DNA from: a virus
Taxonomy: Duplodnaviria > Heunggongvirae > Uroviricota > Caudoviricetes
Length of the DNA: 64,000 nt
Strand: one strand, 5' to 3'
Virus record (IMG/VR): IMGVR_UViG_3300012016_000001
Span: 1-64,000 of that record
Shown here: one piece after another, positions 2,977 to 50,553 of the stretch
Position numbering within the stretch: position 1 is the first letter of the stretch
How the letters are laid out: every line of letters begins with the position of its first letter
Position numbers and translations under genes: made by a program
Notes under the pieces: model-generated
Databases searched by the model: none
Seen by the model: the letters and a program-made list of their open reading frames with translations, nothing else
What the model was told of the DNA's origin: nothing

Positions 2977-3050
2977 GCTCCTTTAGCTCAGTTGGATAGA
3001 GCAATAGCCTTCTAAGCTATGGGTCGTTGGTTCGAATCCAACAGGGAGTA
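2977..3050 (+). tRNA. tRNA-Arg (anticodon TCT)
   Basis: Acceptor GCTCCTT/AGGGAGT (with G.U pairs), D-arm GCTC-AGTTGGATA-GAGC, anticodon stem ATAGC/GCTAT with loop CTTCTAA, T-arm GTTGG-TTCGAAT-CCAAC. Confidence 0.8.
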
Positions 3051-3357
3051 CTAGTATGAAAGAAAAATTAAGACAATGGTTCTATTCAATTAATGTCAAT
3101 AAGTATAGACATTATTTTGAGGAATGGTATTCCAATTTAACTCCTCAACAATTAAGATGGTATGAAAAAATATTCTAGATTAGACGAATTAAAGTAAAAA
3201 ATAAGTGAAAATGAAGAAATTTTTAGTACTCATGTTTGCCTTACTAATGGCTATTAGTTTTTAGAGTTGCACCAACTGTAGTGGTAATCCCAGTCTAAAC
3301 AGTCCTGTTAAAACTGAACTTGTAGTGGATCAAGCTATTAGCTTAGATAACTAGTAC

Positions 3358-3834
3358 ATGTTCATGAATTATGGTGAGAACTATCGTTGGTTTGAAACTT
3401 GCGTTCTTATGGACGATTTCCTAGATGAGGAAACTGATGGAAGTGTTAATATGGTTGTTAATATCTATCAGGTTGCAAAAGGTGATGATAAATCTTTCGA
3501 TGTTAAAGTATTCAAGTTTCAACACTTAAAAGATGGAACTGTTTTGAAAGATTCTGTTGCTGGTTTTTGGATAGAAGATAATCCTTTGAATGATTCAACT
3601 ATAAAGATTGATTACAAGGAAGCCTTTAATCTTGTTCAAAAGGTAAATCTACCTAAACCACATACTAGAAATGCTATTCTAAGGAATCCTCTTGGTCCTC
3701 TAGACACTAATCCACAGTGGGTGTTCGGAAATATCCGTGAACAAATATGGGTGGATGCAACCACAGGAGAAATTAGAAAATCAAATCCAGCATTTCCTGA
3801 TGAATTAAAAATGCCTCTTGGTGAATGGCCCTGA
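3358..3834 (+). CDS. hypothetical protein
   Basis: 158-aa ORF embedded between tRNA genes. No motif recognised. Confidence 0.45.
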   Translation: MFMNYGENYRWFETCVLMDDFLDEETDGSVNMVVNIYQVAKGDDKSFDVKVFKFQHLKDGTVLKDSVAGFWIEDNPLNDSTIKIDYKEAFNLVQKVNLPKPHTRNAILRNPLGPLDTNPQWVFGNIREQIWVDATTGEIRKSNPAFPDELKMPLGEWP

Positions 3835-3919
3835 TTTCACTCTTTGAGCTAGTTGGGAAACTAGCATGTAAAACCGATATTTTTCATAAATTATTAGGAG
3901 CTACGAGTTAGCTCCATTT

Positions 3920-3993
3920 GGGGGTAGTGGTGTAAATGGCTAACACATAATCCTTGCAAGATTAAATTTAGGGTTCGAGTCCCTCTACTTCCA
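3920..3993 (+). tRNA. tRNA-Ala (anticodon TGC)
   Basis: Acceptor GGGGGTA/TACTTCC with a G3:U70 wobble (the Ala identity element). Anticodon stem TAATC/GATTA with loop CTTGCAA, T-loop TTCGAGT. Confidence 0.65.
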
Positions 3994-3997
3994 CATA

Positions 3998-4065
3998 CAG
4001 AAGACACACAGCAAGTGCTTTATAATAAAAAATTTTAGGGAAATTTAATAATTATAAGTCTTCTG
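3998..4065 (+). repeat. clamp repeat unit (CAGAAGAC ... ACAGCAA ... GTCTTCTG)
   Basis: Same architecture, directly after tRNA-Ala. Confidence 0.6.
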
Positions 4066-4070
4066 ATTTT

Positions 4071-4146
4071 GGCTTGTTGAGCCCACTGGAGTGGGAACTT
4101 GACTGTCACTCAAGTAAAACAAAGGGATCGATACCCTTGCAGGCCG
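4071..4146 (+). tRNA. candidate divergent tRNA-Asp (anticodon GTC) with atypical D-arm (5-bp stem, 4-nt loop) and T-loop ATCGATA
   Basis: Acceptor GGCTTGT/GCAGGCC (two G.U pairs), anticodon arm CTTGA-CTGTCAC-TCAAG, T-arm AAGGG-ATCGATA-CCCTT. Total 76 nt, noncanonical. Confidence 0.35.
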
Positions 4147-4203
4147 CTAAATCAAAACTAATGAGTCTCTAAAGTATTTTTAAACAATTAAAGTGTAACC
4201 TGT

Positions 4204-4461
4204 ATGATTAACTCGATTCCTATAATGGACCAGAAGATTATTGATAAGTATTTTCCTGGCCAAGCAGTCAAGTCAATCATGCGTACACCGTTAAAGTCTG
4301 TGAGAGGCTATTCACTTGAAGGAAACAAAGGATTGCTTATAAGCACTCCGAAACTTAAACACCTTCTTGCTCTTTATGCTTCTCAGATAGCGTTACAAAC
4401 AAAATGGAATACTTCCCTTAATAAGGAAGGAGACCATTTGATTTGTCTCTTGTACCCTTAA
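4204..4461 (+). CDS. hypothetical small protein (85 aa) inside the tRNA island
   Basis: ORF only. It lies between tRNA genes, so coding status is uncertain. Confidence 0.2.
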   Translation: MINSIPIMDQKIIDKYFPGQAVKSIMRTPLKSVRGYSLEGNKGLLISTPKLKHLLALYASQIALQTKWNTSLNKEGDHLICLLYP

Positions 4462-4473
4462 ATGGGTAATACT

Positions 4474-4543
4474 GGTCCTTAGTTTAGTGGTAAAACGATG
4501 GTCTCCAAAACCATTGTCATCTGTTCGATTCAGATAGGGCCTG
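4474..4543 (+). tRNA. tRNA-Trp (anticodon CCA)
   Basis: Anticodon stem ATGGT/ACCAT with loop CTCCAAA, T-arm ATCTG-TTCGATT-CAGAT, acceptor GGTCCTT/AGGGCCT with one mismatch. Confidence 0.7.
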
Positions 4544-4576
4544 CAATCACTAAAGGGAAAAGAAACTGTAGTTTAT

Positions 4577-4647
4577 GGGCAATTGTCCGAGCGATTAGGT
4601 GGCGGACTGCAAATCCGTCTAGACAGGTTTGACTCCTGTATTGCCTT
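4577..4647 (+). tRNA. tRNA-Cys (anticodon GCA)
   Basis: The anticodon arm and variable region CGGACTGCAAATCCGTCTAG closely resemble bacterial tRNA-Cys. Acceptor GGGCAAT/ATTGCCT, T-arm ACAGG-TTTGACT-CCTGT. Confidence 0.75.
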
Positions 4648-4686
4648 CATCAAATGATGTTGATTTTTTGCATATTAATGACTTTA

Positions 4687-4712
4687 GTGTCTGGTTCGTG
4701 AGAATAGGACAC
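4687..4712 (+). promoter_or_regulatory. conserved tRNA-leader hairpin (loop TGGTTCGTGAGAATAG)
   Basis: Stem GTGTC/GACAC enclosing the conserved loop, 9 nt upstream of the tRNA-Met 5' end. Member of a 6-copy family. Confidence 0.5.
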
Positions 4713-4721
4713 TTTTTACAT

Positions 4722-4793
4722 CGCAGGGTAGAGCAGTGGTAGCTCGCAAGTTTCATAAGCTTGAAGTCGTTAGTTCGAATCTAACCCCTGCAA
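4722..4793 (+). tRNA. tRNA-Met (anticodon CAT), C1:A72 mismatch
   Basis: D-arm GAGC-AGTGGTA-GCTC, anticodon stem CAAGT/GCTTG with loop TTCATAA, T-arm GTTAG-TTCGAAT-CTAAC. The unpaired 1:72 position recalls initiator-like tRNA. Confidence 0.7.
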
Positions 4794-4799
4794 CAAATT

Positions 4800-4883
4800 G
4801 GGAGTTTATTCCGTAAGTGGTAGCGGGGCTGACTGTAAATCAGCTTGCTTTTGCATCGGGGTGTTCGACTCACTCAGCTCCCA
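4800..4883 (+). tRNA. tRNA-Tyr (anticodon GTA), long variable arm
   Basis: Anticodon loop GACTGTAAATC typical of Tyr. Acceptor GGGAGTT/AGCTCCC, variable arm of about 13 nt, T-loop TTCGACT. Confidence 0.8.
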
Positions 4884-4887
4884 CTTT

Positions 4888-4959
4888 GGCCTTATAGTTC
4901 TAATGGTAAAACACCGCACTTGTAATGCGGATTTCTCAGTTCGATTCTGGGTAGGGCCT
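4888..4959 (+). tRNA. tRNA-Thr (anticodon TGT)
   Basis: Acceptor GGCCTTA/TAGGGCC, anticodon stem CGCA/TGCG with loop CTTGTAA, T-loop TTCGATT. It starts 5 nt after tRNA-Tyr. Confidence 0.8.
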
Positions 4960-5027
4960 CTATGCATCGGCTTAGGACTGTTGCGTTACGCTTCCTCATG
5001 GTGATACCTTTAAGGTAGAGGAAGAAA

Positions 5028-5086
5028 GGAGTACACACAGCAATGTTTTTATACAGTTATGATATTGCAGAGTTGTTTTGTACTCC
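5028..5086 (+). repeat. clamp repeat unit (GGAGTACA ... ACAGCAA ... TGTACTCC)
   Basis: Same architecture. It is followed by the terminator-like hairpin at 5091. Confidence 0.6.
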
Positions 5087-5090
5087 GTAT

Positions 5091-5116
5091 GAGGTTGGCT
5101 TTGTCCAACCTCTTTT
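5091..5116 (+). terminator. intrinsic-terminator-like hairpin (8-bp stem GAGGTTGG/CCAACCTC followed by TTTTG)
   Basis: Perfect inverted repeat followed by a T-run, immediately upstream of the aberrant tRNA-Lys candidate. Confidence 0.45.
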
Positions 5117-5205
5117 GCCCTCATCGTATATCGGTCAGTGCTGGAAACAGACGATTACCCCTGCCTTTTAAGCAGGTAAGCATGGTTCGACTCCATGTGG
5201 GGGCA
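5117..5205 (+). tRNA. aberrant tRNA-Lys candidate (anticodon TTT) with ~16 extra nt in the D region (89 nt)
   Basis: Acceptor GCCCTCA/TGGGGGC (one G.U), anticodon arm CCTGC-CTTTTAA-GCAGG, T-arm CATGG-TTCGACT-CCATG. The D region is too long to fold canonically. Confidence 0.4.
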
Positions 5206-5244
5206 CTATAAAAATCAAGACAATAAAAGTAGTTTTTAAGAAAT

Positions 5245-5376
5245 AAAGAAGTCTTACAGCAATAACAATTAATCTAAGTTTACCAAAAAGCGCTGAACTT
5301 GTAGTTCAATGGTAGAATACCTTTTTATTAAAAAGGAGATGACGGTTCGAATCCGTGTGGCAAAAAAGACTTCTTT
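5245..5376 (+). repeat. clamp repeat unit (AAAGAAGTCTT ACAGCAA ... AAGACTTCTTT) enclosing a tRNA-like element
   Basis: 10-11 bp complementary arms 120 nt apart. The ACAGCAA box sits right after the 5' arm. The enclosed 5292-5365 sequence is tRNA-like. Confidence 0.55.
5292..5365 (+). other. tRNA-like element with canonical D-arm and T-arm but unresolved acceptor; carries a 7-bp hairpin where the anticodon arm should be (loop TTATTAA if read as a 5-bp stem)
   Basis: D-arm GTAGTTCAATGGTAGAAT, T-arm ACGG-TTCGAAT-CCGT, internal hairpin CCTTTTT-ATT-AAAAAGG. No complementary acceptor strands were found. The element is nested inside a clamp repeat unit (5245-5376). Confidence 0.25.
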
Positions 5377-5379
5377 TAT

Positions 5380-5452
5380 AGAGCTATCCTCTAATAGGTT
5401 AGGAGACGTGACTGATAATCACGCAATCCCAGTTCAAGTCTGGGTAGCTCTA
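5380..5452 (+). tRNA. tRNA-Ile (anticodon GAT)
   Basis: Perfect acceptor AGAGCTA/TAGCTCT, anticodon stem CGTGA/TCACG with loop CTGATAA, T-arm CCCAG-TTCAAGT-CTGGG. Confidence 0.8.
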
Positions 5453-5601
5453 CAATCGTCCAAACAAAAAGTAATACAAACAAACATTTATCAAACTAAA
5501 CATTCAGCAAAACACAATAAGAATATTTCTGCTTAGGCAGAAGTGTTTTTAGTGTAAACTCCTGGAGTACGTGTACTCTGGGAGGGTTTTGTTTTGGACT
5601 C

Positions 5602-5631
5602 AGCCTCATCTAGTTGCAAATAGGTGAGGCT
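5602..5631 (+). promoter_or_regulatory. conserved tRNA-leader hairpin variant (loop TCTAGTTGCAAATAGG)
   Basis: Stem AGCCTCA/TGAGGCT ending 4 nt upstream of tRNA-Phe. Confidence 0.45.
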
Positions 5632-5634
5632 TTA

Positions 5635-5709
5635 GGGGCAGTAGCGCAGGTGGTCAGTTCGCGCCAGTCTGAAAAACTGGAGATCGTGGTTCAACTCCAC
5701 GCTGCCCCA
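5635..5709 (+). tRNA. tRNA-Phe (anticodon GAA)
   Basis: Perfect acceptor GGGGCAG/CTGCCCC, anticodon stem CCAGT/ACTGG with loop CTGAAAA, T-arm CGTGG-TTCAACT-CCACG. Confidence 0.85.
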
Positions 5710-5728
5710 CAGAATAGTATATTACTAT

Positions 5729-5799
5729 AAAGAGGGCTCACAGCAAATTCATTCTAATTTTTTTCGCCATTATAAGTTTGATTAGCTAAAGCCCTCTTA
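5729..5799 (+). repeat. clamp repeat unit (TATAAAGAGGGCT C ACAGCAA ... AGCCCTCTT); first of 4 tandem units
   Basis: 5' arm AAGAGGGCT with its reverse complement AGCCCTCTT 50 nt downstream. ACAGCAA at 5740-5746. Confidence 0.65.
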
Positions 5800-5805
5800 A
5801 ATATA

Positions 5806-5869
5806 CAGGGTACAGACAGCAAACTTTATTTTAGGTTCGAACTTTTAACTCGATGTGTCTAGTACCCTG
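5806..5869 (+). repeat. clamp repeat unit (CAGGGTAC AG ACAGCAA ... GTACCCTG)
   Basis: Second tandem unit. Its core contains GGTTCGAAC, which resembles a T-loop. Confidence 0.6.
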
Positions 5870-5874
5870 CCTAT

Positions 5875-5947
5875 AAAGGAGTCCTACAGCAAATTTGTCT
5901 TACATTCCGAATTGTCATTTCAGAAGAAAAAGAAAATGGACTCCTTT
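5875..5947 (+). repeat. clamp repeat unit (TATAAAGGAGTCC T ACAGCAA ... GGACTCCTTT)
   Basis: Third tandem unit, with 10-bp arms. Confidence 0.65.
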
Positions 5948-5979
5948 TTAAATGAATAACCAATTATAAAATATATTAA

Positions 5980-6053
5980 GGAGGGCATGCAGCAAAAAGT
6001 TTGTAAATAGCGTGTCTGTGTAACATACTTAACAGTGCCCTCCGTTTTTATGA
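5980..6053 (+). repeat. clamp repeat unit (TTAAGGAGGGCA TGCAGCAA ... TGCCCTCC)
   Basis: Fourth tandem unit. Its core contains GTAAATAG, resembling the tRNA-leader hairpin loop. It lies immediately upstream of the ORF at 6082. Confidence 0.6.
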
Positions 6054-6081
6054 AAATGTTTTAACTATTTAAATAGTAACT

Positions 6082-6876
6082 ATGCAAAAATTAAATGTTT
6101 TATTAGCTCTTAGAGAGAAGTTAGCTAATCGTTATGCCCAAATGAACGGTGACTATACTTCATTCTTTAAGAACAAGCAAGGAGCGTTTCAAGGTACGCT
6201 CAAGACACACTCTCCTTTAGATGGGTATGCAGTAGATTCTACTAAAGTAGCTAATGTGAGAGTTATTACCACAGTCAATGAAAAAATGGATTGGTGGTTG
6301 AAAGAAGCTCTAGACTATTTTAACACAGCTTTGGCTATTGAAGCATCTAATGGGCAAGGTGCTCCTACAGTTGAACTAGAATTCGATGGAAGAACTTACG
6401 GTCCTTTCCCAGCTACTGTGTTATTAAGGCTTCGTGGCATTATAGAGAACGATAAGTTCGCTACAATGCTTGGTAATATTCCTGTTAGAGAGGAGACCAA
6501 AGTTTGGTTGCCTATTGATCAGGATGAAGATTACAAGAGAAGAGGTAATATCTTCCAAACAGAAAGACAAGAAGGTGAGACTCGTACTACAGAAACACAT
6601 GATGAAATCTTGAAAGATCCTAACTTAGATCCAGCTCATCTTCCTTCTAATTACCGTGCTCAAGTAACTCAAGTTAAGAGAACAGTTAAGACTGGAGATT
6701 ATACTACTCAGTCATTTACTGGTGAATGGACACATCAGCAACGTGCTAATCTTTTAAAAAGAAGAAGTGCATTGCTCGATGCTATCAATGTTGCCTTACA
6801 AAAAGTCAATGACCGTGAGGCAATTGAGTGTAAAGTAGATGATCTATTCAGACATCTCATTTATGGACAAAATTAA
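6082..6876 (+). CDS. hypothetical protein (264 aa) within the tRNA island
   Basis: Long ORF with balanced composition. It is preceded by four tandem clamp repeats. No motif recognised. Confidence 0.5.
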   Translation: MQKLNVLLALREKLANRYAQMNGDYTSFFKNKQGAFQGTLKTHSPLDGYAVDSTKVANVRVITTVNEKMDWWLKEALDYFNTALAIEASNGQGAPTVELEFDGRTYGPFPATVLLRLRGIIENDKFATMLGNIPVREETKVWLPIDQDEDYKRRGNIFQTERQEGETRTTETHDEILKDPNLDPAHLPSNYRAQVTQVKRTVKTGDYTTQSFTGEWTHQQRANLLKRRSALLDAINVALQKVNDREAIECKVDDLFRHLIYGQN

Positions 6877-7010
6877 ACTTTAAATATTGACCCTAGCTTT
6901 AGCTTCACACTTTAGCTTTACAGAATCCTAGATAGTAAGCATCAATGTTGTGGTCAAAAGCTTTAGCGAAGTTGATTACAGTGTATTACTTACCTTGACG
7001 ACTATTATCG

Positions 7011-7045
7011 CTCGGTAATCGCGGGTTCAAATCCCGTCCCGCCCT
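7011..7045 (+). other. orphan tRNA 3' half (anticodon-stem 3' strand CTCGG, variable TAATC, T-arm GCGGG-TTCAAAT-CCCGT, acceptor CCCGCCC)
   Basis: Canonical T-arm and acceptor 3' strand, but no matching 5' half upstream. The complementary 5' half lies 71 nt downstream. Confidence 0.5.
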
Positions 7046-7086
7046 CAAACAGAGTTCTTCTGAACTCTGCCCTTTCATGTTACTTT

Positions 7087-7112
7087 AGTCATTGCTTGTG
7101 AAAGTAGTGACT
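7087..7112 (+). promoter_or_regulatory. conserved tRNA-leader hairpin variant (loop TTGCTTGTGAAAGTAG)
   Basis: Stem AGTCA/TGACT, 4 nt upstream of the tRNA 5' half. Confidence 0.45.
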
Positions 7113-7116
7113 ATAT

Positions 7117-7154
7117 GGGCGGGTCGTCTAGTGGTTAAGACTCCGGGTTTTTAA
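7117..7154 (+). other. orphan tRNA 5' half (acceptor GGGCGGG, D-arm GTC-TAGTGGTTAA-GAC, anticodon-stem 5' strand CCGGG, loop TTTTTAA: Lys-TTT-like)
   Basis: Perfectly complementary to the acceptor and anticodon-stem strands of the 3' half at 7011-7045, but located downstream of it, i.e. a permuted order. Confidence 0.5.
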
Positions 7155-7228
7155 GCATCAGCATTATAGGGTAAAATGTAATACGCAAAAGTTCATGGAT
7201 TAGTAAGACGGATTTGTCGCTAATCCTA

Positions 7229-7301
7229 GGGAGAGTAGCTCAGTGGTTAAAGCAATAGTCGCTAAAACTATCGATCGAGGGTTCGAATCCCTCCTCTCCT
7301 G
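7229..7301 (+). tRNA. putative amber-suppressor tRNA (anticodon CTA, reads UAG); G at position 33
   Basis: Acceptor GGGAGAG/CTCTCCT (G1.U72), perfect 5-bp anticodon stem ATAGT/ACTAT with the 7-nt loop CGCTAAA (anticodon at 7262-7264), T-arm GAGGG-TTCGAATCCCTC. Confidence 0.6.
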
Positions 7302-23842: not shown

Positions 23843-25132
23843 ATGCGGAGTGGGACAGATGATTTGTTTGTAATAGCTGATAGAACAGCACGACAAGAAG
23901 AATGTAGAAGAAAATGGATACAACATAAATGTGTTGGAACTATAGTTGCAGCAACTGGCTTTGGTAAAACCAGAGTTGGAATGAACTGCATAGAAACTAT
24001 AGTAAAGCATTATCCTAACTTCCGTTGTTTAGTAGTAGTTCCTACAGACACACTACAGAAACAATGGAAGAGTCAACTAGATGAAAAAGGTTTAGGTCTT
24101 AACTGTGATGTATTAGTAATAAACACAGCTGTAAAAGAGAAAAGGCAATATCATTTAGTTGTTCTGGATGAAGTACATAGATATGCTAGTGATGTATTTT
24201 CTCAAATATTTAAGCAAGTGGGATTTAAATACATTTTAGGTTTAACTGCAACCTTTGAAAGACTAGATGGAAAGGAAATATTACTATCCAAACATTGTCC
24301 TGTAATAGATTCTATTACTTTGCAGGATGCTATAATGAATGGATGGGTATCTCCTTTTACAGAGTATGAGGTGCTTTTACAAGTAGATAATATAGAAGAA
24401 TATGAACTCCTTAATAAGGAATTCACTGAACACTTTGAATTCTTCAATTTTGATTTTAATTTAGCTATGCTCATGGTTGGTAAAGATGGATGGAAGAATC
24501 GACAGGCGTATCGTGATAAAATATGCCCTAAAGATGCTTCAGCCTCAGACAAAAAATTCCTTTTGTCTAATATAACATATCACGCAATGGGATTTATGAG
24601 GACCATACAAGCCAGAAAGAAATTTATAAATGAGCATCCTAAAAAGATTGAAATTGCTAATAAGATTATTGAAGCAAGAATGGATAAGAAAATAGTTACT
24701 TTTTCAAAGAAAGTATCTATGGCTGAACAGATAAAATATGGTGAAGTATATACAGGAAAAACTTCTAAGAAAAGGAGTGCTACAGTACTTGAAGACTTCA
24801 ACCAATATGCTACAGGAGTACTCAATACTTGTGAAAAAGTAAATGAAGGACTTGATGTACATGGTTTATCTGTCGCTATCATCCTAGGACTAGATTCGGC
24901 ACACCTTAAGGCTATTCAAAGAGTAGGAAGAGTAATTAGACATGAAGCCGGAAAGAAAGCGGAAATATTTAATCTTATCATTGACAAGACTGTTGAAACA
25001 AAGTGGTTTAGTACTTCCCATCCCGAAGGGAGTTATAAAGTCATAGATGAACAAGGACTAGAAAAAGTGTTAAGAGGAGAAGATCCTGGAGAATATGTCA
25101 GACCAGCAACTAAATTCGTATTTAGGTTCTAA
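23843..25132 (+). CDS. superfamily-2 (DEAD/DEAH-like) helicase
   Basis: Walker A VAATGFGKT, motif II VVLDEVH, motif III LGLTAT, motif VI QRVGRVIRH. Confidence 0.75.
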   Translation: MRSGTDDLFVIADRTARQEECRRKWIQHKCVGTIVAATGFGKTRVGMNCIETIVKHYPNFRCLVVVPTDTLQKQWKSQLDEKGLGLNCDVLVINTAVKEKRQYHLVVLDEVHRYASDVFSQIFKQVGFKYILGLTATFERLDGKEILLSKHCPVIDSITLQDAIMNGWVSPFTEYEVLLQVDNIEEYELLNKEFTEHFEFFNFDFNLAMLMVGKDGWKNRQAYRDKICPKDASASDKKFLLSNITYHAMGFMRTIQARKKFINEHPKKIEIANKIIEARMDKKIVTFSKKVSMAEQIKYGEVYTGKTSKKRSATVLEDFNQYATGVLNTCEKVNEGLDVHGLSVAIILGLDSAHLKAIQRVGRVIRHEAGKKAEIFNLIIDKTVETKWFSTSHPEGSYKVIDEQGLEKVLRGEDPGEYVRPATKFVFRF

Positions 25133-25534: not shown

Positions 25535-26152
25535 TTGAATAAATATAACTTAAACATTGATGAGGAGATAGCTATGCTAGAGAAGTATCAGCTAACTCCT
25601 AATGAACTTTTTGTAGTTAGATTGATACTGGTTACCAAAGAAGGTTATCCAGAAAATTATCTCTTTAAGTTTCTTCAAATTAATGATTGTAAGGAAGGTT
25701 TTAGACCAACTTTAGTATCTCTTCAGAACAAAGGAGTAATTCTAAAGAGTTATAAGATTCCTGATAAAGGACAATCTTTTGACCCAGCTGCTATACCTTT
25801 TAGTAAGAACTTTGAAACTGCTTTATATAGGTCAGCTTTTGATATGGGTCAAGAACTCTACGAAGCATATCCAATGTTTGCAGAGATACAAGGTGCTACA
25901 GTTTCTATAAGAGGAATATCTAAAAAGTTTAATACTCTTGAAGATGCTTTTCGTTATTATGGAAAACAAATTAGATGGAATCAAGATACGCACAAGCATA
26001 TTCTTGAACTTCTAGATTGGGCACAAAACAATACTTCTTTCATTAACTTCTCTCTTGCTACATTTTTAGTAGATAGGAAATGGGAAGAGATAGAAGCTTT
26101 GAAGAATGGAGATATTACCAATGTAAACTATAACTCTATGCGCTCCATATGA
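25535..26152 (+). CDS. hypothetical protein
   Basis: 205-aa ORF. Its stop overlaps the helicase exon-1 start (ATGA). Confidence 0.5.
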   Translation: MNKYNLNIDEEIAMLEKYQLTPNELFVVRLILVTKEGYPENYLFKFLQINDCKEGFRPTLVSLQNKGVILKSYKIPDKGQSFDPAAIPFSKNFETALYRSAFDMGQELYEAYPMFAEIQGATVSIRGISKKFNTLEDAFRYYGKQIRWNQDTHKHILELLDWAQNNTSFINFSLATFLVDRKWEEIEALKNGDITNVNYNSMRSI

Positions 26153-26307
26153 TTACCGAATCAGTATTGGAGTTGATTAAAAGAGGACGTGAAGGGCATA
26201 ACCAAGGTATATCTATAGGTATGCCTAAGTTAGAAAGCATAATAGATGGACTTACTAGGTCTACCTATTATCTACTCTTTGGAGGCACTGGTAGTGGTAA
26301 ACGTTAA
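26149..26307 (+). CDS. DnaB-family helicase, exon 1 (N-terminal part through Walker A GGTGSGK; in-frame stop follows if unspliced; splice model ends at 26298)
   Basis: MPKLESIIDGLTRSTYYLLFGGTGSGK matches the DnaB C-terminal-domain H1/Walker A region, which is normally followed by T-[A/T]-F-A-L. That continuation is found at 27552. Confidence 0.6.
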   Translation: MITESVLELIKRGREGHNQGISIGMPKLESIIDGLTRSTYYLLFGGTGSGKR

Positions 26308-27551
26308 AATTTCTTAAGGACTGGTTTTGATGATTCATATTTTCTATATTAGTTATAATAAAATTATAACAATATGGAAATTAATGAAAAAATTGAAACT
26401 GGAGTCAAAATGTACCTGAATGGTGATGGCACATTAACACAATTACAGAGTATACTTGGAATTAGTAAAGATTTAATAGTAGCTAGATTAAAGGAATTAG
26501 GATATACAATTAAAAGAGGCTATAAACTATCTACAGTAATAGGGTTAAAGGCTGCTACTGAAGAATATTTAGCTAATTATAATAATAATCCTAGTTTGAC
26601 TCAAATAGCTGCTAAACATGGAATAAAAAGACAAACTCTTTCTTCACACGTTAAAGAATTAGGTTATGAAGTTATTAATCATCAAGATAGATTGAAATTT
26701 GATAACACTATATTTGATAGCATTGATACAGAAGAAAAGGCTTATTGGTTAGGATTTATATTTGCAGATGGATATGTAAGTGATAATAATGATTTTGAAG
26801 TATCTTTAAGTATTAAAGATTTTACTCACTTAAATTTATTGCATTTATTTATGAAGACTGAAAAGCCTGTCGGATTTAATGAGACTAGATGTAGACTATG
26901 TGTGAGAGATACTCACTTAGTAAATACTCTTAAGTCTTATGGTTGTATACCAAGAAAATCCTTAGTCTTAGAATTTCCAGAAGAAAAAATCTTTAAAGAT
27001 ATTAAACTTATAAGACATTTTATAAGAGGATTTGTTGATGGGGATGGATGCATTACTTACATCAATAAGGAACATACAAAGCCTCAACTCTCTATTTTAG
27101 GAACAGAGCAATTTCTAAATAAACTTCAGGAGTATTTACCTATTGATTTTATACATCAATTAGGATATAATAATAAATCTAAGAGTTTAGTAACTAGAGT
27201 TTTATCCTTTAATGGAAGTACTGCTTACAATGTTTGTAAGTTTCTATATCAAAATTCTAAAGTGTACCTAGATAGAAAATATGAGAAATTTTTAGAAATT
27301 TGCCGTTCAGAGGAGGAATCTTCTGAATTATTACTGGGCAAAAACGGTGAAGGCTGTGATGCTCCCGCCGTGGTAAATTCAGAAATTGCGAAAGGTTCTG
27401 AATCACCGTACAGCGTAGAGAGTGAATAAATATAATCTCTCCAAGAGTGCCTGGCACCCCAACTGAAATAAGTGGGTGAAAACGTACGCGGGACTTAAGC
27501 AAATAAGAAGCTTAAGAAACTAAGATAAAAAGCTTAGTGGTAACAAAATCG
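26299..27551 (+). mobile_element. putative group I intron (1253 nt) carrying a LAGLIDADG homing endonuclease gene, inserted in the helicase Walker A codons
   Basis: The upstream exon ends in T (26298) and the intervening sequence ends in G (27551). Joining GGT-AGT-GGT | AAG-ACT-ACC restores GSGKTT. The endonuclease ORF is flanked by about 75 nt and about 120 nt of non-coding sequence. Confidence 0.55.
26374..27429 (+). CDS. LAGLIDADG homing endonuclease (double-motif) with N-terminal HTH repeats
   Basis: Two LAGLIDADG motifs: LGFIFADGYVS and IRGFVDGDGCI. It has its own start and is flanked by split helicase exons. Confidence 0.85.
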   Translation: MEINEKIETGVKMYLNGDGTLTQLQSILGISKDLIVARLKELGYTIKRGYKLSTVIGLKAATEEYLANYNNNPSLTQIAAKHGIKRQTLSSHVKELGYEVINHQDRLKFDNTIFDSIDTEEKAYWLGFIFADGYVSDNNDFEVSLSIKDFTHLNLLHLFMKTEKPVGFNETRCRLCVRDTHLVNTLKSYGCIPRKSLVLEFPEEKIFKDIKLIRHFIRGFVDGDGCITYINKEHTKPQLSILGTEQFLNKLQEYLPIDFIHQLGYNNKSKSLVTRVLSFNGSTAYNVCKFLYQNSKVYLDRKYEKFLEICRSEEESSELLLGKNGEGCDAPAVVNSEIAKGSESPYSVESE

Positions 27552-28490
27552 AAGACTACCTTTGCCTTATATTCCTTTATATATAGGCCTTTAGTCGAAA
27601 ATTTAGACAATGACGACTTTCGAGTCATATACTATTCATTAGAGATGTCTGCTGATATGTTGTTCTTAAAACTATTATGCATGCATATATGGGATGAATA
27701 TCATATTGAAGTATCTCCTAAAGAATTAATGTCTAGAAAGAAAAACTATATTCTTGATGAAGACCTATATAAAATAGTGCTAGAATGTCAACCTTGGCTA
27801 ACTAAAGTAGAACAGAAAATTACTGTCTATGATAGAGCATTAAATGCACAAGTTCTCTATGCTAATTTACATAGTGAATTAGAAAAAGAAGGAGAATTTA
27901 TCAATACTGATAAGCGTATCCTTTTTAAAGCAAAGAATCCAGATAAAATCATTCTTGTATGTATGGACCATATTGGTCTAGTTCGTCCAGGACAAGGATC
28001 TACTCTTAAAAATGAGATAGATTTATGTAGTAAGTATCTCTTAACCTTTAGAAACATATGTGGTATTAGTCCACTTGTTCTAATGCAAATCAATAGAGAT
28101 TCTACTTCTACTGATAGACGAAAACTAGATATGATTGACCTCAAGTTGAGTGATATCAAAGATAGTGGTAATCCATCTCAGGATGCTGAAGTTATTCTAG
28201 GTATTCTTTCTCCACATAGAGAGCAACTAAATAAGTACAGAAAATATGATATTACTCAACTAGAGGACAAGTTTAGAAGTATTTCTATTCTTAAATCTAG
28301 GTATGGTGAATCTGAAATACAAATTGGAAGTGCATTTTATGGTAAGGCTGGATTATTTAAGGAATTACCAAAGGGTGAGCAGATAACTTGTTATGACCCT
28401 TATATGGACGTTAGTTATATGTTGTCAGATGAAATTACACAAAATGAAAGAATAGATGAAAACGTAGTCAATTTTAATTTTACGATGTAA
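27552..28490 (+). CDS. DnaB-family helicase, exon 2
   Basis: KTTFALYSFIY ... YYSLEMSADML (DnaB H1a SLEMS motif), followed by Walker B-like and arginine-finger regions. The track ORF begins at a GTG at 27537, five codons into the putative intron. Confidence 0.7.
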   Translation, partial: KTTFALYSFIYRPLVENLDNDDFRVIYYSLEMSADMLFLKLLCMHIWDEYHIEVSPKELMSRKKNYILDEDLYKIVLECQPWLTKVEQKITVYDRALNAQVLYANLHSELEKEGEFINTDKRILFKAKNPDKIILVCMDHIGLVRPGQGSTLKNEIDLCSKYLLTFRNICGISPLVLMQINRDSTSTDRRKLDMIDLKLSDIKDSGNPSQDAEVILGILSPHREQLNKYRKYDITQLEDKFRSISILKSRYGESEIQIGSAFYGKAGLFKELPKGEQITCYDPYMDVSYMLSDEITQNERIDENVVNFNFTM

Positions 28491-29189
28491 ATGGCTGAAT
28501 TAATCGCTATTGTTGGTGAATCTGGAAGTGGTAAGACCACTTCAATTAGAAATTTAAATCCAGAAGAGACATTTATTATTTCTACTACAGGTAAAAGACC
28601 TGGTATTAAAGGTGCTAAGAAAAAGTATCCAGATTTTAAGGTAGATAAAGAAACTAAGCAAATGAGTGGCAACTTTTATACTTCTTCAAACATCGACTCT
28701 ATAAAGCAGATGATGAAGATAGTTAATTTAAGAATGCCTAATGTTAAAGTTCTTATTATAGATGATTTTCAGTATTTGCAAGCGTTTGAGGCAATGGCTC
28801 GTGTAGACGAGAAAGGCTATGGTAAGTTTACTGACATGGCTAAACATGCTTATGAAGCGCTTAAGACTGGTATGGATATGAGAGATGACTTGTTCATTGT
28901 AGTATCCACTCATAGTGAAAATACTGGAGATAATCTAAATCCTTACTATAAGATTAAGACACAGGGCAAGATGTTGGATTCTGTGATTACTCTTGAGGGT
29001 CTTTTTACTTATGTATTCTTTACTAGAGTAGTTAATGATGATTCTGCTGGAGTTCAGTATAAATTTCTAACTAACTCAGATGGAACCTGCACAGCTAAAT
29101 CCCCGATGGGACTATTTGAAGATCTACTTATTGACAATGATTTAGATTATGTTATTAAGAAAATCACTGAATATAACGAAGGAGAATGA
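28491..29189 (+). CDS. Sak4-like / AAA_24 family recombination ATPase
   Basis: N-terminal Walker A IAIVGESGSGKTT and Walker B-like LIIDDFQ. The size and layout are typical of phage Sak4 ATPases. Confidence 0.65.
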   Translation: MAELIAIVGESGSGKTTSIRNLNPEETFIISTTGKRPGIKGAKKKYPDFKVDKETKQMSGNFYTSSNIDSIKQMMKIVNLRMPNVKVLIIDDFQYLQAFEAMARVDEKGYGKFTDMAKHAYEALKTGMDMRDDLFIVVSTHSENTGDNLNPYYKIKTQGKMLDSVITLEGLFTYVFFTRVVNDDSAGVQYKFLTNSDGTCTAKSPMGLFEDLLIDNDLDYVIKKITEYNEGE

Positions 29190-37773: not shown

Positions 37774-39573
37774 GTGTTAAATATGGAAATAATGAAAGTA
37801 ATTAAACGTGATGGAAAATTGGAGGAATTTGATGCCTCTAAAATAAAGGCAGCTATTAGGGCTGCCTTTAAAAGTGCAGATGAAGAATTTGACGAAGAAT
37901 TAATAGATGATATATTCAATGATCTTCCTTTATGGGATGAAATGACTATTGATTCTATAGAAGATCAAATAATTGAAGTTCTGAATGACTTTAACTATGA
38001 AAATGTAGCTAGAGAGTATCTATTCTATAAATGGGAACACCAGAAAGCTCGTAATTTAGCAGAGAGCAAGAGGTCCTTTATAGAAAGATATAAAGAAGCT
38101 ACTAATACTGCAAATGCTACTATAGATGACAATAGTAATGTCGGGAATAAGAATATAGGTATACTTAATGCAGAAGGCCACAAGACTGAGAATATTTTAG
38201 TTAGTAGGGCAATGATAAAGAGTAAACTTAAAAGCTTGTTTCTTGACTTTGATGCTAAACAGTATGTAAGAGACTTGAAAAGTCATATAATTTATAAGCA
38301 TGACGAGTCTAGTTTTATGGGTGCTATTGCTCCTTACTGCTGTTCTATATCTATGTATCCTTTCCTCATAGGAGGAATAAAGGGTATAGGTGGTCTTTCT
38401 GCAGCTCCTAAGAATCTTGATAGTTATTGTGGAATGTATGTTAATCTTATATTTGCAATAGCTGGGCAGTTTGCTGGAGCAGTTGCTACTCCTGAATTTT
38501 TATTGTATTTTGACTATTTTGCACGTAAACAATGGGGAGATTTATATTATCAAAAACCTAATGTTCAGACTACCAGTGATTATGTACTACGTAAAATGAC
38601 AATACAAAAGGAAATACATCAATATTTTCAACAAGTTATTTATAGTATTAATCAACCAGCAGCTGCAAGAGGTATGCAATCTGCATTTGTGAACTTTGCA
38701 TATTTTGATAAACCATTTTTTGAAGCAATGTTTGGAAATTTTGTATTTCCAGATATGTCTACTCCTAAGTGGGAATCTCTAAATTGGTTACAAAAAGAGT
38801 TTATGCGATGGTTTAATTCAGAAAGATGTAAATGTATTCTAACTTTCCCTGTAGAATCTTTTGCTCTTATTTATAAAGATGGTAAGTTCTTAGATGAGGA
38901 AAATGCAAAGTTTGTTGCAGAAGAATACTCTAATGGTCATAGCTTTTTTACATATATTTCTGATACTGCTGATAGTTTGTCTTCTTGTTGCCGCCTCAAA
39001 AACAAAGTGGATACAAAAGAATTTAACTTTACCAATGGAAACATGGGTGTGGAGACGGGCTCAAAGAGTGTTATAACTCTTAATTTAAATAGGATTATAC
39101 AAGATTGGTGTAAGTTTATAGGAGGAGTTCCGAAAGTGGGAAATCAATATGACAGTTTACGTCTTTATTTAAGAAATATTCTTCAAAGAGTATATAAATA
39201 TCATATAGCATATAATGAATGCTTATGGGATATGTATGATGCTGGATTACTTCCAGTTTATTCCAATGGATTTATATCTCTTAACAAGCAATATCTAACT
39301 ATCGGACTTAATGGACTTAACCAGGCAGCAGAATTCTTAGGCATTGAGTGTAATGTAAATCAAGAATATCAAGACTTCTGCCAAGCTGTATTCTCTATCA
39401 TAAAGGAAGCTAATTCTGAAGCTAATGGAAAATACTTTGGACACAAAGTTACATTTAATACTGAATGTGTCCCTAGACTCAGTGGGGACGTTAAACCTCT
39501 ATTGATTGACTTGGAAGCCCCTAGAGGGCAACAGGGCGCAAGCAGAAGCGTTTGTAAGTTTCGTGCAGCGTGA
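37774..39573 (+). CDS. nrdD: anaerobic ribonucleoside-triphosphate reductase NrdD (class III), exon 1 (the ORF runs on into the intron until a stop)
   Basis: N-terminal ATP-cone VIKRDGKLEEFDASKIKAAIRAAF, NrdD core and the FNTEC motif. The ORF lacks the C-terminal Zn-ribbon and glycyl-radical motifs, which are found in the ORF at 40502. Confidence 0.85.
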   Translation: MLNMEIMKVIKRDGKLEEFDASKIKAAIRAAFKSADEEFDEELIDDIFNDLPLWDEMTIDSIEDQIIEVLNDFNYENVAREYLFYKWEHQKARNLAESKRSFIERYKEATNTANATIDDNSNVGNKNIGILNAEGHKTENILVSRAMIKSKLKSLFLDFDAKQYVRDLKSHIIYKHDESSFMGAIAPYCCSISMYPFLIGGIKGIGGLSAAPKNLDSYCGMYVNLIFAIAGQFAGAVATPEFLLYFDYFARKQWGDLYYQKPNVQTTSDYVLRKMTIQKEIHQYFQQVIYSINQPAAARGMQSAFVNFAYFDKPFFEAMFGNFVFPDMSTPKWESLNWLQKEFMRWFNSERCKCILTFPVESFALIYKDGKFLDEENAKFVAEEYSNGHSFFTYISDTADSLSSCCRLKNKVDTKEFNFTNGNMGVETGSKSVITLNLNRIIQDWCKFIGGVPKVGNQYDSLRLYLRNILQRVYKYHIAYNECLWDMYDAGLLPVYSNGFISLNKQYLTIGLNGLNQAAEFLGIECNVNQEYQDFCQAVFSIIKEANSEANGKYFGHKVTFNTECVPRLSGDVKPLLIDLEAPRGQQGASRSVCKFRAA

Positions 39574-40501
39574 ACGACTAAGTATAGAGGCTCCTTAAGT
39601 TACTGCAGTGATGCAGTTCTTTTGGGAGATGCGATAGTCTGAACTCTATGGTAACATAGAGAGGAAATTTGAAGAAATTTCCCATCCAAACTTGTTTTCT
39701 CATAAAACACTTATTAAGTTTGTTCTATGTAATAAATGAAAATGTTATTTAAAATTTTTATGAAAATGGAACAAGAAGTACGTAAGTGTTGTATTTGTGG
39801 AGCGTCAGTAGGAAATGGAACTGACAAAGTTTACAAATTTTCAGATGGAAATATGTATTGCAAGAAGCACTATCTTCAGATGTATAGACATGGACATATA
39901 ATAGAAAGAACTATATATGATCCAAATGAATATATAGAATATGAAGATTATGCAGAATGTATATGTTATGATAAATCTGGAAATGAGAAAGGAAGAGTAA
40001 AAATAGATCTAGATAAAGTTTCTTTAATAAAAAAGCATAAAGTGTACATAAGAAAACAAAATGACAAAATTTATGCAGCGATTTCCATTGATAATAAAAA
40101 GGTAATGCTCCATAGATATTTAATGGAAATAATTAATGAAGAATATTCTATTAATAAAGTTGTTGATCATATAAATGGAGATTCTTTAGATAATAGGATT
40201 TCTAATTTAAGAATTTGTACACATAAACAAAATATGCAAAATATAAGAAAGAAAAATAAAATAGTAGGAGTATCTAAAAGTCCTAATAAAAATAATAGAT
40301 GGATTGCAAGAATAATGCATAATTATAAAACTATTAATTTAGGATATTTTGATACTTATGCAGAGGCCACTTTAGCTCGTATACAAAAAGAAAAGGAAAT
40401 CTGTGGAGAGTATGGGCCTAACAAGGATTTATTTTACGTTTTGGATCTCCCTTCTCCATTGGAAGAATTACAAAAATTTGTTCCAGAAGGGGTGTAACAG
40501 A
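39574..40501 (+). mobile_element. intervening sequence in nrdD (putative group I intron) encoding an HNH-AP2 homing endonuclease; exact splice sites not determined
   Basis: NrdD is split into two ORFs with an endonuclease gene between them. The non-coding flank 39574-39735 contains stable hairpins such as GGAAATTT-GAAG-AAATTTCC. This parallels the T4 nrdD group I intron. Confidence 0.5.
39736..40497 (+). CDS. HNH homing endonuclease with AP2 DNA-binding domain
   Basis: HNH motif HRYLMEII ... VDHINGDSLDNRISNLRICTHKQN. AP2-like motif GVSKSPNKNNRWIARIMHNYKTINLGYFDTYAEATLARIQ. Confidence 0.85.
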   Translation: MKMLFKIFMKMEQEVRKCCICGASVGNGTDKVYKFSDGNMYCKKHYLQMYRHGHIIERTIYDPNEYIEYEDYAECICYDKSGNEKGRVKIDLDKVSLIKKHKVYIRKQNDKIYAAISIDNKKVMLHRYLMEIINEEYSINKVVDHINGDSLDNRISNLRICTHKQNMQNIRKKNKIVGVSKSPNKNNRWIARIMHNYKTINLGYFDTYAEATLARIQKEKEICGEYGPNKDLFYVLDLPSPLEELQKFVPEGV

Positions 40502-40978
40502 ATGGCTGAAAGTTTAGCTGCTAAGAATTATAATTGGGATAAAGAAGATGGATATTGGGTACCTGAAGATACTAATCTATACGCATCTTATATATTTAAG
40601 CCTAATGATAAGTCTGTAAGTATTCTAGATAAAATTACATTACATGGTTCTAATTATATAGGAGATTATTTAGACGGAGGAAGTGCTGCACATATTAATC
40701 TAGCAGACCATCCTTCTTTCTTCCAAGCCTGGAAAATTCTAAATTTTGCAGCAGAACAAGGATGTCAGTATTTTACTTTTAATGTTCCTAATTCTGAGTG
40801 TCAAGATTGTGGATGGATAGGTAAAAAACCAGTAAAAGTATGTCCTAGATGTGGTTCTACGCATATAGATTACTATGATAGAATTATTGGTTATTTAACT
40901 AAAATACGTAATTGGGCAGATTGCCGTAAAATTGAACAAAAAACTAGAGTTTATGAAAAATTCGAAGATAGAGCCTGA
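40502..40978 (+). CDS. nrdD: NrdD exon 2 (C-terminal Zn ribbon and glycyl-radical domain)
   Basis: CQDCGW ... CPRCGS zinc ribbon and the glycyl-radical motif RIIGYLTKI. The open frame extends upstream to 40403, so the true splice acceptor lies within 40403-40560. Confidence 0.75.
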   Translation: MAESLAAKNYNWDKEDGYWVPEDTNLYASYIFKPNDKSVSILDKITLHGSNYIGDYLDGGSAAHINLADHPSFFQAWKILNFAAEQGCQYFTFNVPNSECQDCGWIGKKPVKVCPRCGSTHIDYYDRIIGYLTKIRNWADCRKIEQKTRVYEKFEDRA

Positions 40979-49162: not shown

Positions 49163-50553
49163 AATTACAAGTAAGTAAAAATGCAAACGTAAACTACCTT
49201 TCTAAGGTAATAGAAATAAAAGAATTTGTTAAGCATCCAGATCCCAAAGTTGAAAGAATTAAGTGTGCCGTAGTAGATGGATTTATAATTACAATAGGAA
49301 TAGATAGTCAGCCTGGTAAATATGTCTATTTTCCTGTGTTATCACAGATAAATCCTAATCTATTACAATATCTTAATTTATATAGGAATGCTGAAAAGAA
49401 TAAAGACCCAGAGAAAACTGGATATTTTGAAGATAAAGGAATAGTAAAAGCAATCAACTTAAGAGGTGTAAAATCGGAAGGTTTCCTACTTCCCTTAGTA
49501 GACTTACAAAACTTTATTATAGACCAAGTTAATGTTGATTTAGGAGATGTAGAGGCTAATGTTGAATTTGATGAAGTAGAACATGAAGGTAAAACGTTCT
49601 GGATATCGAAAAAGTACGTCGTCCCTGTTAGAGGTGAAGGAACTCAATCACAAGGTGGAAAAGTACGCAAGCAAAAGAAAGGACTCGATAAAATTATTGA
49701 CTCCCAATTTAGATTCCATTATGACACAGTTATTCTTAAGAAATGTCCTTACGTAATTCAACCCGATGACCTTATACACATTAGCAGCAAGTGGCACGGC
49801 ACTTCTGGTATATCTGCTTACGTGCTATGTCATAAGAAACTTAACTGGAAAGAACGCATCGCTAGATGGTTAACTGGAGAATCATTTGATACTTATGACT
49901 ATATATATGCTTCTCGTACTGTAATTAAAAATAAATATTACAATGAGGGAGTAACGTCAGGTTATTATGATTGCGATGTATGGAAATACGCAGATGAATA
50001 TATTAGACCTTTTCTAGATAAAGGAATGACTGCCTATTATGAAATAGTCGGCTATCTTCCTAATGGAAAAATGATACAAAAAGATTATGATTATGGATGT
50101 GTTCCTCCTGTAAAAATAATTGACCCAAATACAGGTAAAGAGGTAGTTCAATATAAACAAGGAAAACAATTTAAGGTATATGTTTATAGAATAACTCTTA
50201 CTAATGTAGATGGTAAAGTACACGAATTTTCTGCACATGAAGTACAAATATGGTGTAAACAGAGGAGCATTATGCCAGTTCTAGAATACTATTATGGTTA
50301 TGCCAGGGATTTATATCCAGATGCTGTCGGAGATAATTGGTCTGTTAATTTCATGGATAATCTTGCCAATGATAAGAATTTTCATATGGAGCAGAATTCG
50401 CCTGAGTGCATTAATAAAGTTCCTCATGAAGGATTAGTCATTAAGAAAGAATCTATGAAATCAGAGGCTTGGAAAGTTAAGTGTTTTAAATTCTTAGGTA
50501 AAGAACAAGACGCTGCTCTTGCTGGAGAGACTAATATTGAGGACAATGCGTGA
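49159..50553 (+). CDS. putative RNA ligase (Rnl2-like nucleotidyltransferase motif I KxHGT) with N-terminal extension
   Basis: ISSKWHGTSG resembles the T4 Rnl2 lysine-adenylate motif EKIHGTN. The gene lies between the DNA ligase and Pnkp. Confidence 0.4.
   Translation: MKLQVSKNANVNYLSKVIEIKEFVKHPDPKVERIKCAVVDGFIITIGIDSQPGKYVYFPVLSQINPNLLQYLNLYRNAEKNKDPEKTGYFEDKGIVKAINLRGVKSEGFLLPLVDLQNFIIDQVNVDLGDVEANVEFDEVEHEGKTFWISKKYVVPVRGEGTQSQGGKVRKQKKGLDKIIDSQFRFHYDTVILKKCPYVIQPDDLIHISSKWHGTSGISAYVLCHKKLNWKERIARWLTGESFDTYDYIYASRTVIKNKYYNEGVTSGYYDCDVWKYADEYIRPFLDKGMTAYYEIVGYLPNGKMIQKDYDYGCVPPVKIIDPNTGKEVVQYKQGKQFKVYVYRITLTNVDGKVHEFSAHEVQIWCKQRSIMPVLEYYYGYARDLYPDAVGDNWSVNFMDNLANDKNFHMEQNSPECINKVPHEGLVIKKESMKSEAWKVKCFKFLGKEQDAALAGETNIEDNA

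Follow-up and report, generated by a model that had tools for sequence, protein, structure and literature searches.

Positions 26149 to 28490 of the window, that is, of the whole 64,000-nucleotide (nt) stretch analysed here (positions 1 to 64,000 of IMG/VR virus record IMGVR_UViG_3300012016_000001, class Caudoviricetes), hold a DnaB-type helicase gene that is interrupted within its Walker A codons by a 1253-nt insertion carrying an open reading frame (ORF) for a LAGLIDADG homing endonuclease. We are confident, if not certain, that the insertion, 26299-27551, is a mobile group I intron with the LAGLIDADG gene in the loop of its P1 helix (L1). The features that make up the locus are the following.

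26149 to 26298, plus strand: helicase exon 1, 50 codons from an ATG start, ending ...GGTGSG, last base U26298.
26299 to 27551, plus strand: predicted group I intron, 1253 nt, starting AAACG, with terminal G27551.
26305 to 26307, plus strand: in-frame TAA located 7 nt beyond the 5' splice site, where translation of exon 1 would end in unspliced RNA.
26374 to 27429, plus strand: homing endonuclease ORF, 351 amino acids, own ATG, N-terminus of helix-turn-helix (HTH) type, two LAGLIDADG motifs.
26743 to 26772, plus strand: LAGLIDADG motif 1, YWLGFIFADG, residues 124-133.
27019 to 27048, plus strand: LAGLIDADG motif 2, FIRGFVDGDG, residues 216-225.
27552 to 28490, plus strand: helicase exon 2, KTTFAL..., 312 codons plus stop.

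The ORF at 26149-26307 reads ...LLFGGTGSGKR up to its TAA, and the continuation KTTFALYSF...YYSLEMS is carried by the frame 27552-28490. Because the insertion is 3n+2 nt long, the two exons lie in different frames; when the sequence is joined in silico after T26298 and before A27552, a product of 362 amino acids with an intact GGTGSGKTT results, and the predicted spliced junction is GGTAGTGGT|AAGACTACC. Shifting the cut point by 0, +1 or +2 leaves the mRNA identical, and only at shift 0 does the exon end in U and the intron in G. The original prediction, in which an insertion of about 1.25 kb encoding a LAGLIDADG endonuclease splits the helicase exactly inside Walker A, with U as the last exon base and G as the last inserted base, is therefore borne out in each of these points (U26298, G27551, 1253 nt), and contiguous relatives agree with the junction. 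Exon 2 matches Pfam DnaB_C (1.3e-11), and the spliced product matches PHROG 19, 'DnaB-like replicative helicase' (3.9e-27), with the Walker A GGTGSGKTT and the YYSLEMS motif both present. A DnaB N-terminal domain was not found in the spliced helicase, which has the short crAss-like form. By tblastn it falls in the replicative helicase family of crAss-like phages, and the host gene is the DnaB-type replicative helicase of a crAss-like phage, probably of the Zeta group.

Uninterrupted counterparts of this gene were found in nine IMG/VR relatives with 91-96% amino acid identity, some of them on contigs of 163-193 kb. In all nine the helicase is one contiguous 1086-nt gene that reads YLLFGGTGSGKTTFALYSF over the junction, and their empty-site sequence, ACTGGTAGTGGT|AAGACTAC, equals the exon ends of the window. 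The 362-residue joined product can be aligned with contiguous homologs over its entire length. In three of them (L010, L011 and L013) the DNA from -12 to +6 is identical to those exon ends, and in L010 and L011 identity reaches +8 (empty-site sequence ACTGGTAGTGGTAAGACTAC). Since relatives this close carry the gene uninterrupted, the sequences indicate that the 1253-nt insertion is a presence/absence polymorphism between close relatives. A comparison with the nine empty alleles gave no clear pattern of altered divergence around the site that would mark a co-conversion tract.

The endonuclease ORF is intact and of the class expected for such an element. It scores 26.8 bits against Pfam LAGLIDADG_3 (cut-off 22.5) and matches PHROG 4645, 'endonuclease', over its full length (3e-53), and residues ~1-110 give matches to HTH-type repeats. 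Ten homologs show no change in either LAGLIDADG motif; all ten match LAGLIDADG_3 (best 2e-10) and five match LAGLIDADG_1; a PDB sequence search with the endonuclease and with the ten-sequence profile found no relative. Among 440 endonuclease relatives in IMG/VR the closest has 51% identity and also lies at the G|K site of a DnaB-type helicase, the bar marking the junction between the Walker A glycine and lysine codons. Because most homologs (L022-L090, IMG/VR) contain between one and nine TAG or TGA codons in frame, their intron ORFs are written in the recoded genetic codes of the host phages; the window copy has no such codon.

The ribozyme was located as a single 253-nt block, 27299-27551, at the 3' end of the intron, where G+C content is 0.46 (27300-27500) versus about 0.28 around it. 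Its helices follow the order P2, P3, P4/P5, P6, P7, a P7.1-type hairpin, P3', P8, P7', P9 and P9.1, with P3 crossing P7 in a pseudoknot.

27308 to 27325, plus strand: P2 hairpin with GNRA loop, CAGAGGA-GGAA-UCUUCUG; covariation at all 7 pairs; also in the minimum free energy (MFE) fold.
27334 to 27339, plus strand: P3 5' strand, CUGGGC, pairing with 27449-27454; 100% paired, 4 of 6 pairs covary; a local Rfam alignment agrees.
27345 to 27370, plus strand: P4/P5 hairpin, P4 CGGUG/CGCCG and P5 GGC/GCU with an A-rich J4/5 junction; covariation helix 3.
27372 to 27407, plus strand: extended P6 hairpin, GGU..AUUCAGAA / UUCUGAAU.ACC; 10 of 11 pairs covary.
27413 to 27417, plus strand: P7 5' strand, GCGUA, pairing with 27485-27489 across P3; 100% paired.
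27418 to 27441, plus strand: P7.1-type hairpin, GAGAG...CUCUC, whose conserved loop UGAAUAAAUAUAAU contains the endonuclease stop codon, 27427-27429.
27449 to 27454, plus strand: P3 3' strand, GCCUGG.
27455 to 27478, plus strand: P8 hairpin, CACCC...GGGUG; covariation helix 7; in the MFE fold.
27485 to 27489, plus strand: P7 3' strand, UACGC, with an A-rich J8/7 junction just upstream.
27494 to 27516, plus strand: P9 hairpin, CUUAAGC...GCUUAAG; covariation helix 8; in the MFE fold.
27520 to 27537, plus strand: P9.1 hairpin, CUAAG-AUAAAAAG-CUUAG; 5 of 5 pairs covary.

P9.1 is followed by a conserved tail, GGUAACAAAAUCG, which ends in the terminal G. We take the 3' tail AACAAAAUCG of the window intron to resemble the end of the td intron.

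This structure rests on nine family members, aligned by plain MAFFT over the stretch that runs from the guide to the terminal G; the consensus was drawn by eye from four of the nine and the pairs were then counted in all of them. Standard pairs fill 97.5% of 521 cells, compared with 33-44% after sliding the partners by 1-3 columns; both sides change in 41 of the 59 pairs, and not one of 500 shuffles reaches any of the observed measures. All helices are supported by covariation, the P3/P7 pseudoknot included, and in P7 a G-C pair is compensated by A-U in three sequences. The terminal G is invariant in the alignment and also present in most of the 85 family members listed. The MFE fold of 27296-27551 is more stable than expected (z = -4.6) and recovers P2, P6, P7.1, P8, P9 and P9.1 unaided. 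Between P7 and P3' one covarying hairpin (27418-27441) was observed, and a second hairpin was not seen. The window copy scores highest of all members on the family profile (235 bits), with every helix and all invariant positions kept. Two earlier pairings were discarded: a hand-drawn UCCCGC/GCGGGA, taken as P3 or P7, and the loop AUUGCGAAAGG, taken as the classical 'P element' of P4, neither of which is conserved in the relatives.

With a P1-P9 core supported by covariation, a U.G pair, a terminal G, empty sites and two invariant endonuclease motifs, the proposal of a group I intron with a LAGLIDADG endonuclease holds well. Its internal layout had to be redrawn. The core had been expected in two parts, 26299-26373 and 27430-27551, which the single block at 27299-27551 contradicts; and of the claim that structured non-coding sequence flanks the ORF only the 3' half survives. 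The 5' flank (26299-26373, 19% G+C) has a fold no more stable than shuffled sequence (z = -1.2), and half of the RNA with structure falls within the 3' end of the ORF. The last 43 endonuclease codons (131 nt) are ribozyme sequence, and the protein tail that they encode lies mostly beyond the end of the PHROG match at residue 311.

The remaining helix, P1, joins the 5' splice site to a guide about 1 kb away.

26293 to 26301, plus strand: P1 5' strand, exon AGUGGU plus intron AAA, with U26298 opposite G27302.
27299 to 27307, plus strand: P1 3' strand, the internal guide sequence UUU-G-CCGUU.
26302 to 27298, plus strand: L1, about 1 kb, comprising a 72-nt leader that is AT-rich and unstructured and the greater part of the endonuclease ORF.

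A guide pairing with the exon end ...AGTGGT does exist, as anticipated, with a U26298.G27302 wobble at the 5' splice site. It was found at 27299-27307 and not in the 5' flank, where no candidate in the first 75 intron nt pairs with the exon. Because the guide lies 1 kb downstream of the 5' splice site, the endonuclease gene is predicted to sit in the P1 loop, which measures 58-89 nt in the ORF-less relatives L012 and L006. Directly 5' of P2, a G followed by CCGU or similar is present in all crAss-type members. Pairing score alone did not discriminate the 5' splice site, decoy GGT sites scoring equally, and therefore the sites of relatives were set by protein alone, as an upstream open frame with GxxxxG before the K[ST] exon. 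At these protein-defined sites the exon ends in GGU opposite the guide G in all recognisable Walker A-site members, and the intron-side half of P1 covaries (AAUA/UAUU, AAUU/AAUU, UUC/GAA, GA/UC, GG/CC, AAA/UUU). In the PolA member of a Leptolyngbya phage the guide is GUCGC and matches the exon GCGAU, and joining the exons restores PolA motif B.

The same G|K junction is occupied in more distant helicases. The helicases of cr6_1 and cr118_1 (both Suoliviridae) and of MT835492, with roughly 21-36% protein identity to that of the window, carry an insertion at exactly this position, and in each case the exon ends in GGU and the insertion in G. The insertions differ in their coding content:

Window: 1253 nt, endonuclease ORF intact, 351 amino acids.
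cr6_1: about 1 kb, endonuclease ORF present.
cr118_1: 337 nt, ORF absent, C-terminal endonuclease remnant (…LDRKLEKY…).
MT835492: 381 nt, ORF absent, C-terminal endonuclease remnant (YLDRKYEKF).

Intact, ORF-bearing and ORF-less states at one site make up the life cycle that a homing intron is expected to pass through. GenBank records each of the cr6_1 and cr118_1 helicases as a pair of coding sequences (CDSs), and the MT835492 counterpart is split likewise or unannotated. Split annotations were observed in L001 (cr6_1, NC_055894, 1484-3489), L006 (cr118_1, MT774379, 2176-3499) and L004 (1367-3326), under public labels such as 'hypothetical protein'/'DNA helicase' or 'non-ATPase regulatory subunit'/'ATPase'. 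Two-CDS entries for intron-bearing helicase and ATPase genes are annotation errors that arise from unrecognised introns; for annotation, the helicases of the window, cr6_1, cr118_1 and MT835492 each count as one gene.

In the mechanism that we propose, the helicase gene would be transcribed as a precursor on which a ribosome translating exon 1 would halt at the TAA, which lies 7 nt inside the intron. The ribozyme, presumably catalytic and 253 nt long (27299-27551), would fold its helices from P2 to P9.1, and its guide UUU-G-CCGUU would reach back ~1 kb to AGUGGU|AAA to form P1 with U26298.G27302. Free guanosine would then attack after U26298, and the freed exon end would attack after the terminal G27551, joining GGU to AAG and restoring GGTGSGKTT. 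The 351-amino-acid endonuclease, if active as its motifs suggest, would cut intron-less helicase alleles of co-infecting relatives at the Walker A codons, its likely target, and repair of the cut allele would copy the intron in (homing); the empty sites of L010, L011 and L013 are candidate substrates.

Several observations weigh against this interpretation. The Rfam model RF00028, Intron_gpI, gave no match in the window at its gathering threshold, none at E<=10 either in 26100-27700 or in the G+C-rich core alone (27300-27570), none in the relatives L001-L003, and only 10.7 bits (E = 3.5, threshold 50) on the ORF-less copy of cr118_1. P1 is short (6+3 bp, of which three are G.U), and simple scoring rates two decoy sites in the 1-kb loop as its equals or better. 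A ribosome translating the final 43 endonuclease codons traverses P1' to P7.1 and would compete with folding. Splicing itself we infer from the sequence. Moreover, no copy was found closer than 83% ribozyme or 51% endonuclease identity, so that recent mobility of the window copy is conjectural; an exact 24-mer spanning the 5' junction had no IMG/VR match. We read the Rfam result as a limit of the model rather than as evidence against an intron, because Intron_gpI fails likewise on terL of vB_CpeS-1181, a gene that is plainly split; moreover, its local alignment to the cr118_1 copy puts P3, P4, P5 and P3' where the covariation structure does. The original prediction had proposed this very search and would have given up the intron if no group I core was found and no spliced mRNA detected; taken literally, that rule would have wrongly rejected it. 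Among the usual marks of a group I intron, the U.G pair in P1, the terminal G, a core with its pseudoknot and a restored frame are present, and a curated Rfam match is absent.

The same weaknesses would suit a decayed intron, in which the ribozyme or the long-range P1 is dead, the DnaB-type helicase is inactive and another helicase covers replication: splicing is an inferred step, P1 is weak and must form over a 1-kb loop, the endonuclease ORF reads through half of the ribozyme, and SNF2 and SF1 helicases are also encoded in the window. We nevertheless consider such a pseudogene improbable, since the window copy has the top profile score with all helices and invariant positions kept, the exons are 91-96% identical to uninterrupted relatives without a frameshift or stop, and other members with 1-kb L1 loops sit in essential genes of many genomes. 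It is also very improbable that the insertion is a free-standing endonuclease cassette and that the helicase works as two polypeptides, of 52 and about 317 amino acids, with no RNA splicing. Such an arrangement would have a reading frame at hand, as a GTG-initiated ORF (GTG 27537, 27537-28490) covers exon 2, and a precedent in split phage genes that work as two chains, for example the split nrd genes of T4-like phages. However, the break falls between G and K of GxxGxGK[ST] and leaves neither fragment with a whole P-loop, the model has no use for a conserved RNA of 253 nt in which 41 pairs covary, and the ORF-less insertions at the same site cannot be endonuclease cassettes.

Excision at the protein level, as an intein, can for practical purposes be set aside. 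Inteins are common in the P-loops of replicative helicases and frequent in crAss-like phages (PMC7886860), and the endonuclease ORF is in the same frame as exon 1; yet four stop codons (TAA, TAG, TAA, TAA) separate exon 1 from the ORF, of which the three TAA are unreadable by the amber-suppressor tRNA(CUA) of the window, and the 3n+2 length puts exon 2 in another frame. A Hint or other intein-splicing domain was not found, nor was an in-frame fusion with both exteins, in keeping with the earlier argument against an intein. Group II introns have recently been reported in phages (PMC12350094), and a group II intron or another element such as an insertion sequence (IS) or a miniature inverted-repeat transposable element (MITE) might also be considered. 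We give these a negligible chance: the insertion has no group II match in Rfam, no reverse transcriptase or maturase and no GUGYG...AY boundaries (it starts AAACG and ends AUCG), its helices follow the group I order with the P3/P7 pseudoknot, and for an IS or MITE neither terminal inverted repeats nor a target-site duplication was seen, and the predicted RNA-level excision is exact to the base.

The intron in the helicase gene belongs to a wider ribozyme family. BLAST with the G+C-rich stretch identified related segments in crAss-like phages, a Leptolyngbya phage (PolA), a Lak megaphage, Clostridium/Clostridioides phages (one in a split terL) and Staphylococcus phages, and a profile of the nine sequences recovered 85 members that reach the 3' end in the fetched loci; a scan of the window with this profile found no copy besides the helicase intron. 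About half of the 85, a sample biased in that the loci were gathered by endonuclease similarity, precede K[ST] codons at a Walker A G|K junction, in host genes of at least five families (DnaB-type, SNF2, AAA (ATP_43b-like), AAA_24/Sak4-like and SF1). Other family members lie in helicase and ATPase genes of cr6_1 and cr118_1. In L012, whose helicase is 93% identical to that of the window, the SNF2 gene is split at GATGFG|KTRVG and the DnaB-type gene is intact, the reverse of the window. Ribozymes from different host genes are mixed together: the nearest ribozyme neighbour is in the same host-gene class in only 14 of 53 cases, some cross-gene pairs are 90-95% identical, and the window ribozyme is closest to introns at SNF2 sites (83% and 79%), with those at DnaB sites at 75-76%.

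These observations raise the prospect, which we judge about evenly balanced, that one ribozyme-endonuclease lineage, of which the window intron is a branch, uses Walker A coding sequence (GGU|AAR, glycine-lysine) as a portable landing site in non-orthologous ATPase genes; the guide GCCGU would pair with any ...NGGU glycine codon. If so, homing would be directed to a motif and not to a gene, which would help to explain the extreme intron load of crAss-like phages. The reuse of Walker A over several ATPase genes is a neat case, open to testing, of introns spreading ectopically in phages that are richer in introns than any others known. In the window itself, the SNF2 helicase (23843-25132, ATGFGKT) and an AAA_24/Sak4-like ATPase (28491-29189, GESGSGKT) have intact Walker A codons and are empty sites; the same G|K junctions are occupied in relatives, for SNF2 in L012, L032 and MT835492 and for AAA_24 in L025, L026 and L029. 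The clostridial members are arranged differently, with the guide, P2, P3 and P4 before the ORF and the remainder after it (L003, 1471-1526 and 2460-2667; L002, 1524-1551 and 2453-2642, the upstream segment of the latter being weak, E=5.9). Their ORF lies around L5, not L1, and one ribozyme lineage would therefore have acquired ORFs independently.

Apart from the helicase, nrdD is split in the window (37774-40978): an ORF at 37774-39573 matches an ATP-cone and positions 7-414 of the 562 of the NRDD profile, next comes an ORF for an HNH_3 endonuclease (39736-40497), and an ORF at 40403-40978 carries NRDD 415-560. A G+C-rich, structured-looking stretch lies right after exon 1 (39570-39690). The insertion matches neither the helicase-intron family profile nor Rfam; it probably represents another group I intron, with a ribozyme from a different family. 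At 2739-12489, 22 tRNA genes form an array that also holds a tmRNA gene (10705-11066, 68 bits with Rfam, predicted tag GENNTTPRAKVVSIVYRAAA), a gene uncommon in phages. The array includes an amber-suppressor tRNA with anticodon CUA (7229-7302), which points to recoding of TAG over some of the genome. Three ORFs of 264 amino acids in or beside the array (15-809, 6082-6876 and 8760-9554) are not copies of one gene, one matching DUF7788/vWA, one DUF7873 and one nothing, and their equal length appears coincidental. Finally, a block for replication and nucleotide metabolism includes, at 50550-51395, the gene for a sigma-70 family protein that is complete, with regions 1.2, 2, 3 and 4, near PolA (55115-57388, uninterrupted), an SF1 helicase, an ATP-dependent DNA ligase, PNKP, Thy1, an ADP-ribosylglycohydrolase and NAPRTase.

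The closest known introns include those of phage subgroup IA (T4 td/nrdB/nrdD and Bacillus nrdF, PMC2248736), which share the P1-P9 core with a P7.1-type hairpin and extra P9 hairpins, an in-frame stop shortly after the 5' end of the intron, and a homing endonuclease gene carried in a loop outside the core. Unlike them, the window intron, at most a candidate for subgroup IA, has a single P7.x hairpin, its ORF lies in L1 and not in P6 or P9, it encodes a LAGLIDADG and not a GIY-YIG or HNH enzyme, and its ribozyme family is unrecognised by RF00028. A double-motif LAGLIDADG sequence in the P1 loop is known from Hypomyces cox3-i2, a fungal mitochondrial group IA1 intron (PMC4964425); cox3-i2 is organellar, and the likeness is one of arrangement. 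The introns of vB_CpeS-1181 terL and phiCDKH02 are 89-96% identical to the window copy from P7 through P7.1 to P3', over about 50 nt, the rest of their core fits the family profile (1e-30), and the flanks are a split terminase gene; their ORF, in contrast, lies around L5, and they differ in host gene and host phylum. Inteins in the P-loops of DnaB and other ATPases likewise place a selfish element with a homing endonuclease in Walker A codons, but the window element is out of frame, a Hint domain was not found in it, and it would be removed at the RNA level.

The crAss-like phages of the Delta and Zeta groups, which are 145-192 kb long and carry suppressor tRNAs, are known for dense group I introns and inteins, and introns detected there via their endonuclease domains interrupt core replication genes (Yutin et al. 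2021, PMC7886860). In jumbo gut phages group I introns average 18.5 per genome, with splicing confirmed by metatranscriptomes (PMC12880540). With a crAss-like DnaB gene, relatives on contigs of 163-193 kb and a suppressor tRNA, the window belongs to the same phage assemblage as the introns of PMC7886860, and its helicase intron is a well-supported, ordinary instance of a phenomenon known in crAss-like phages: a selfish element of textbook type, lodged where the codons of an essential gene are most conserved. RNA structure is absent from that study, and the DnaB Walker A site, ribozyme architecture and guide were worked out here. What is added is the ribozyme structure, its invisibility to Rfam, the placement of the ORF in L1 and the finding that the Walker A G|K junction is used repeatedly. 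An abundant ribozyme family of gut phages escapes the standard Rfam model, and intron counts that rely on the model are therefore too low; the alignment and structure given here could seed a usable covariance model.

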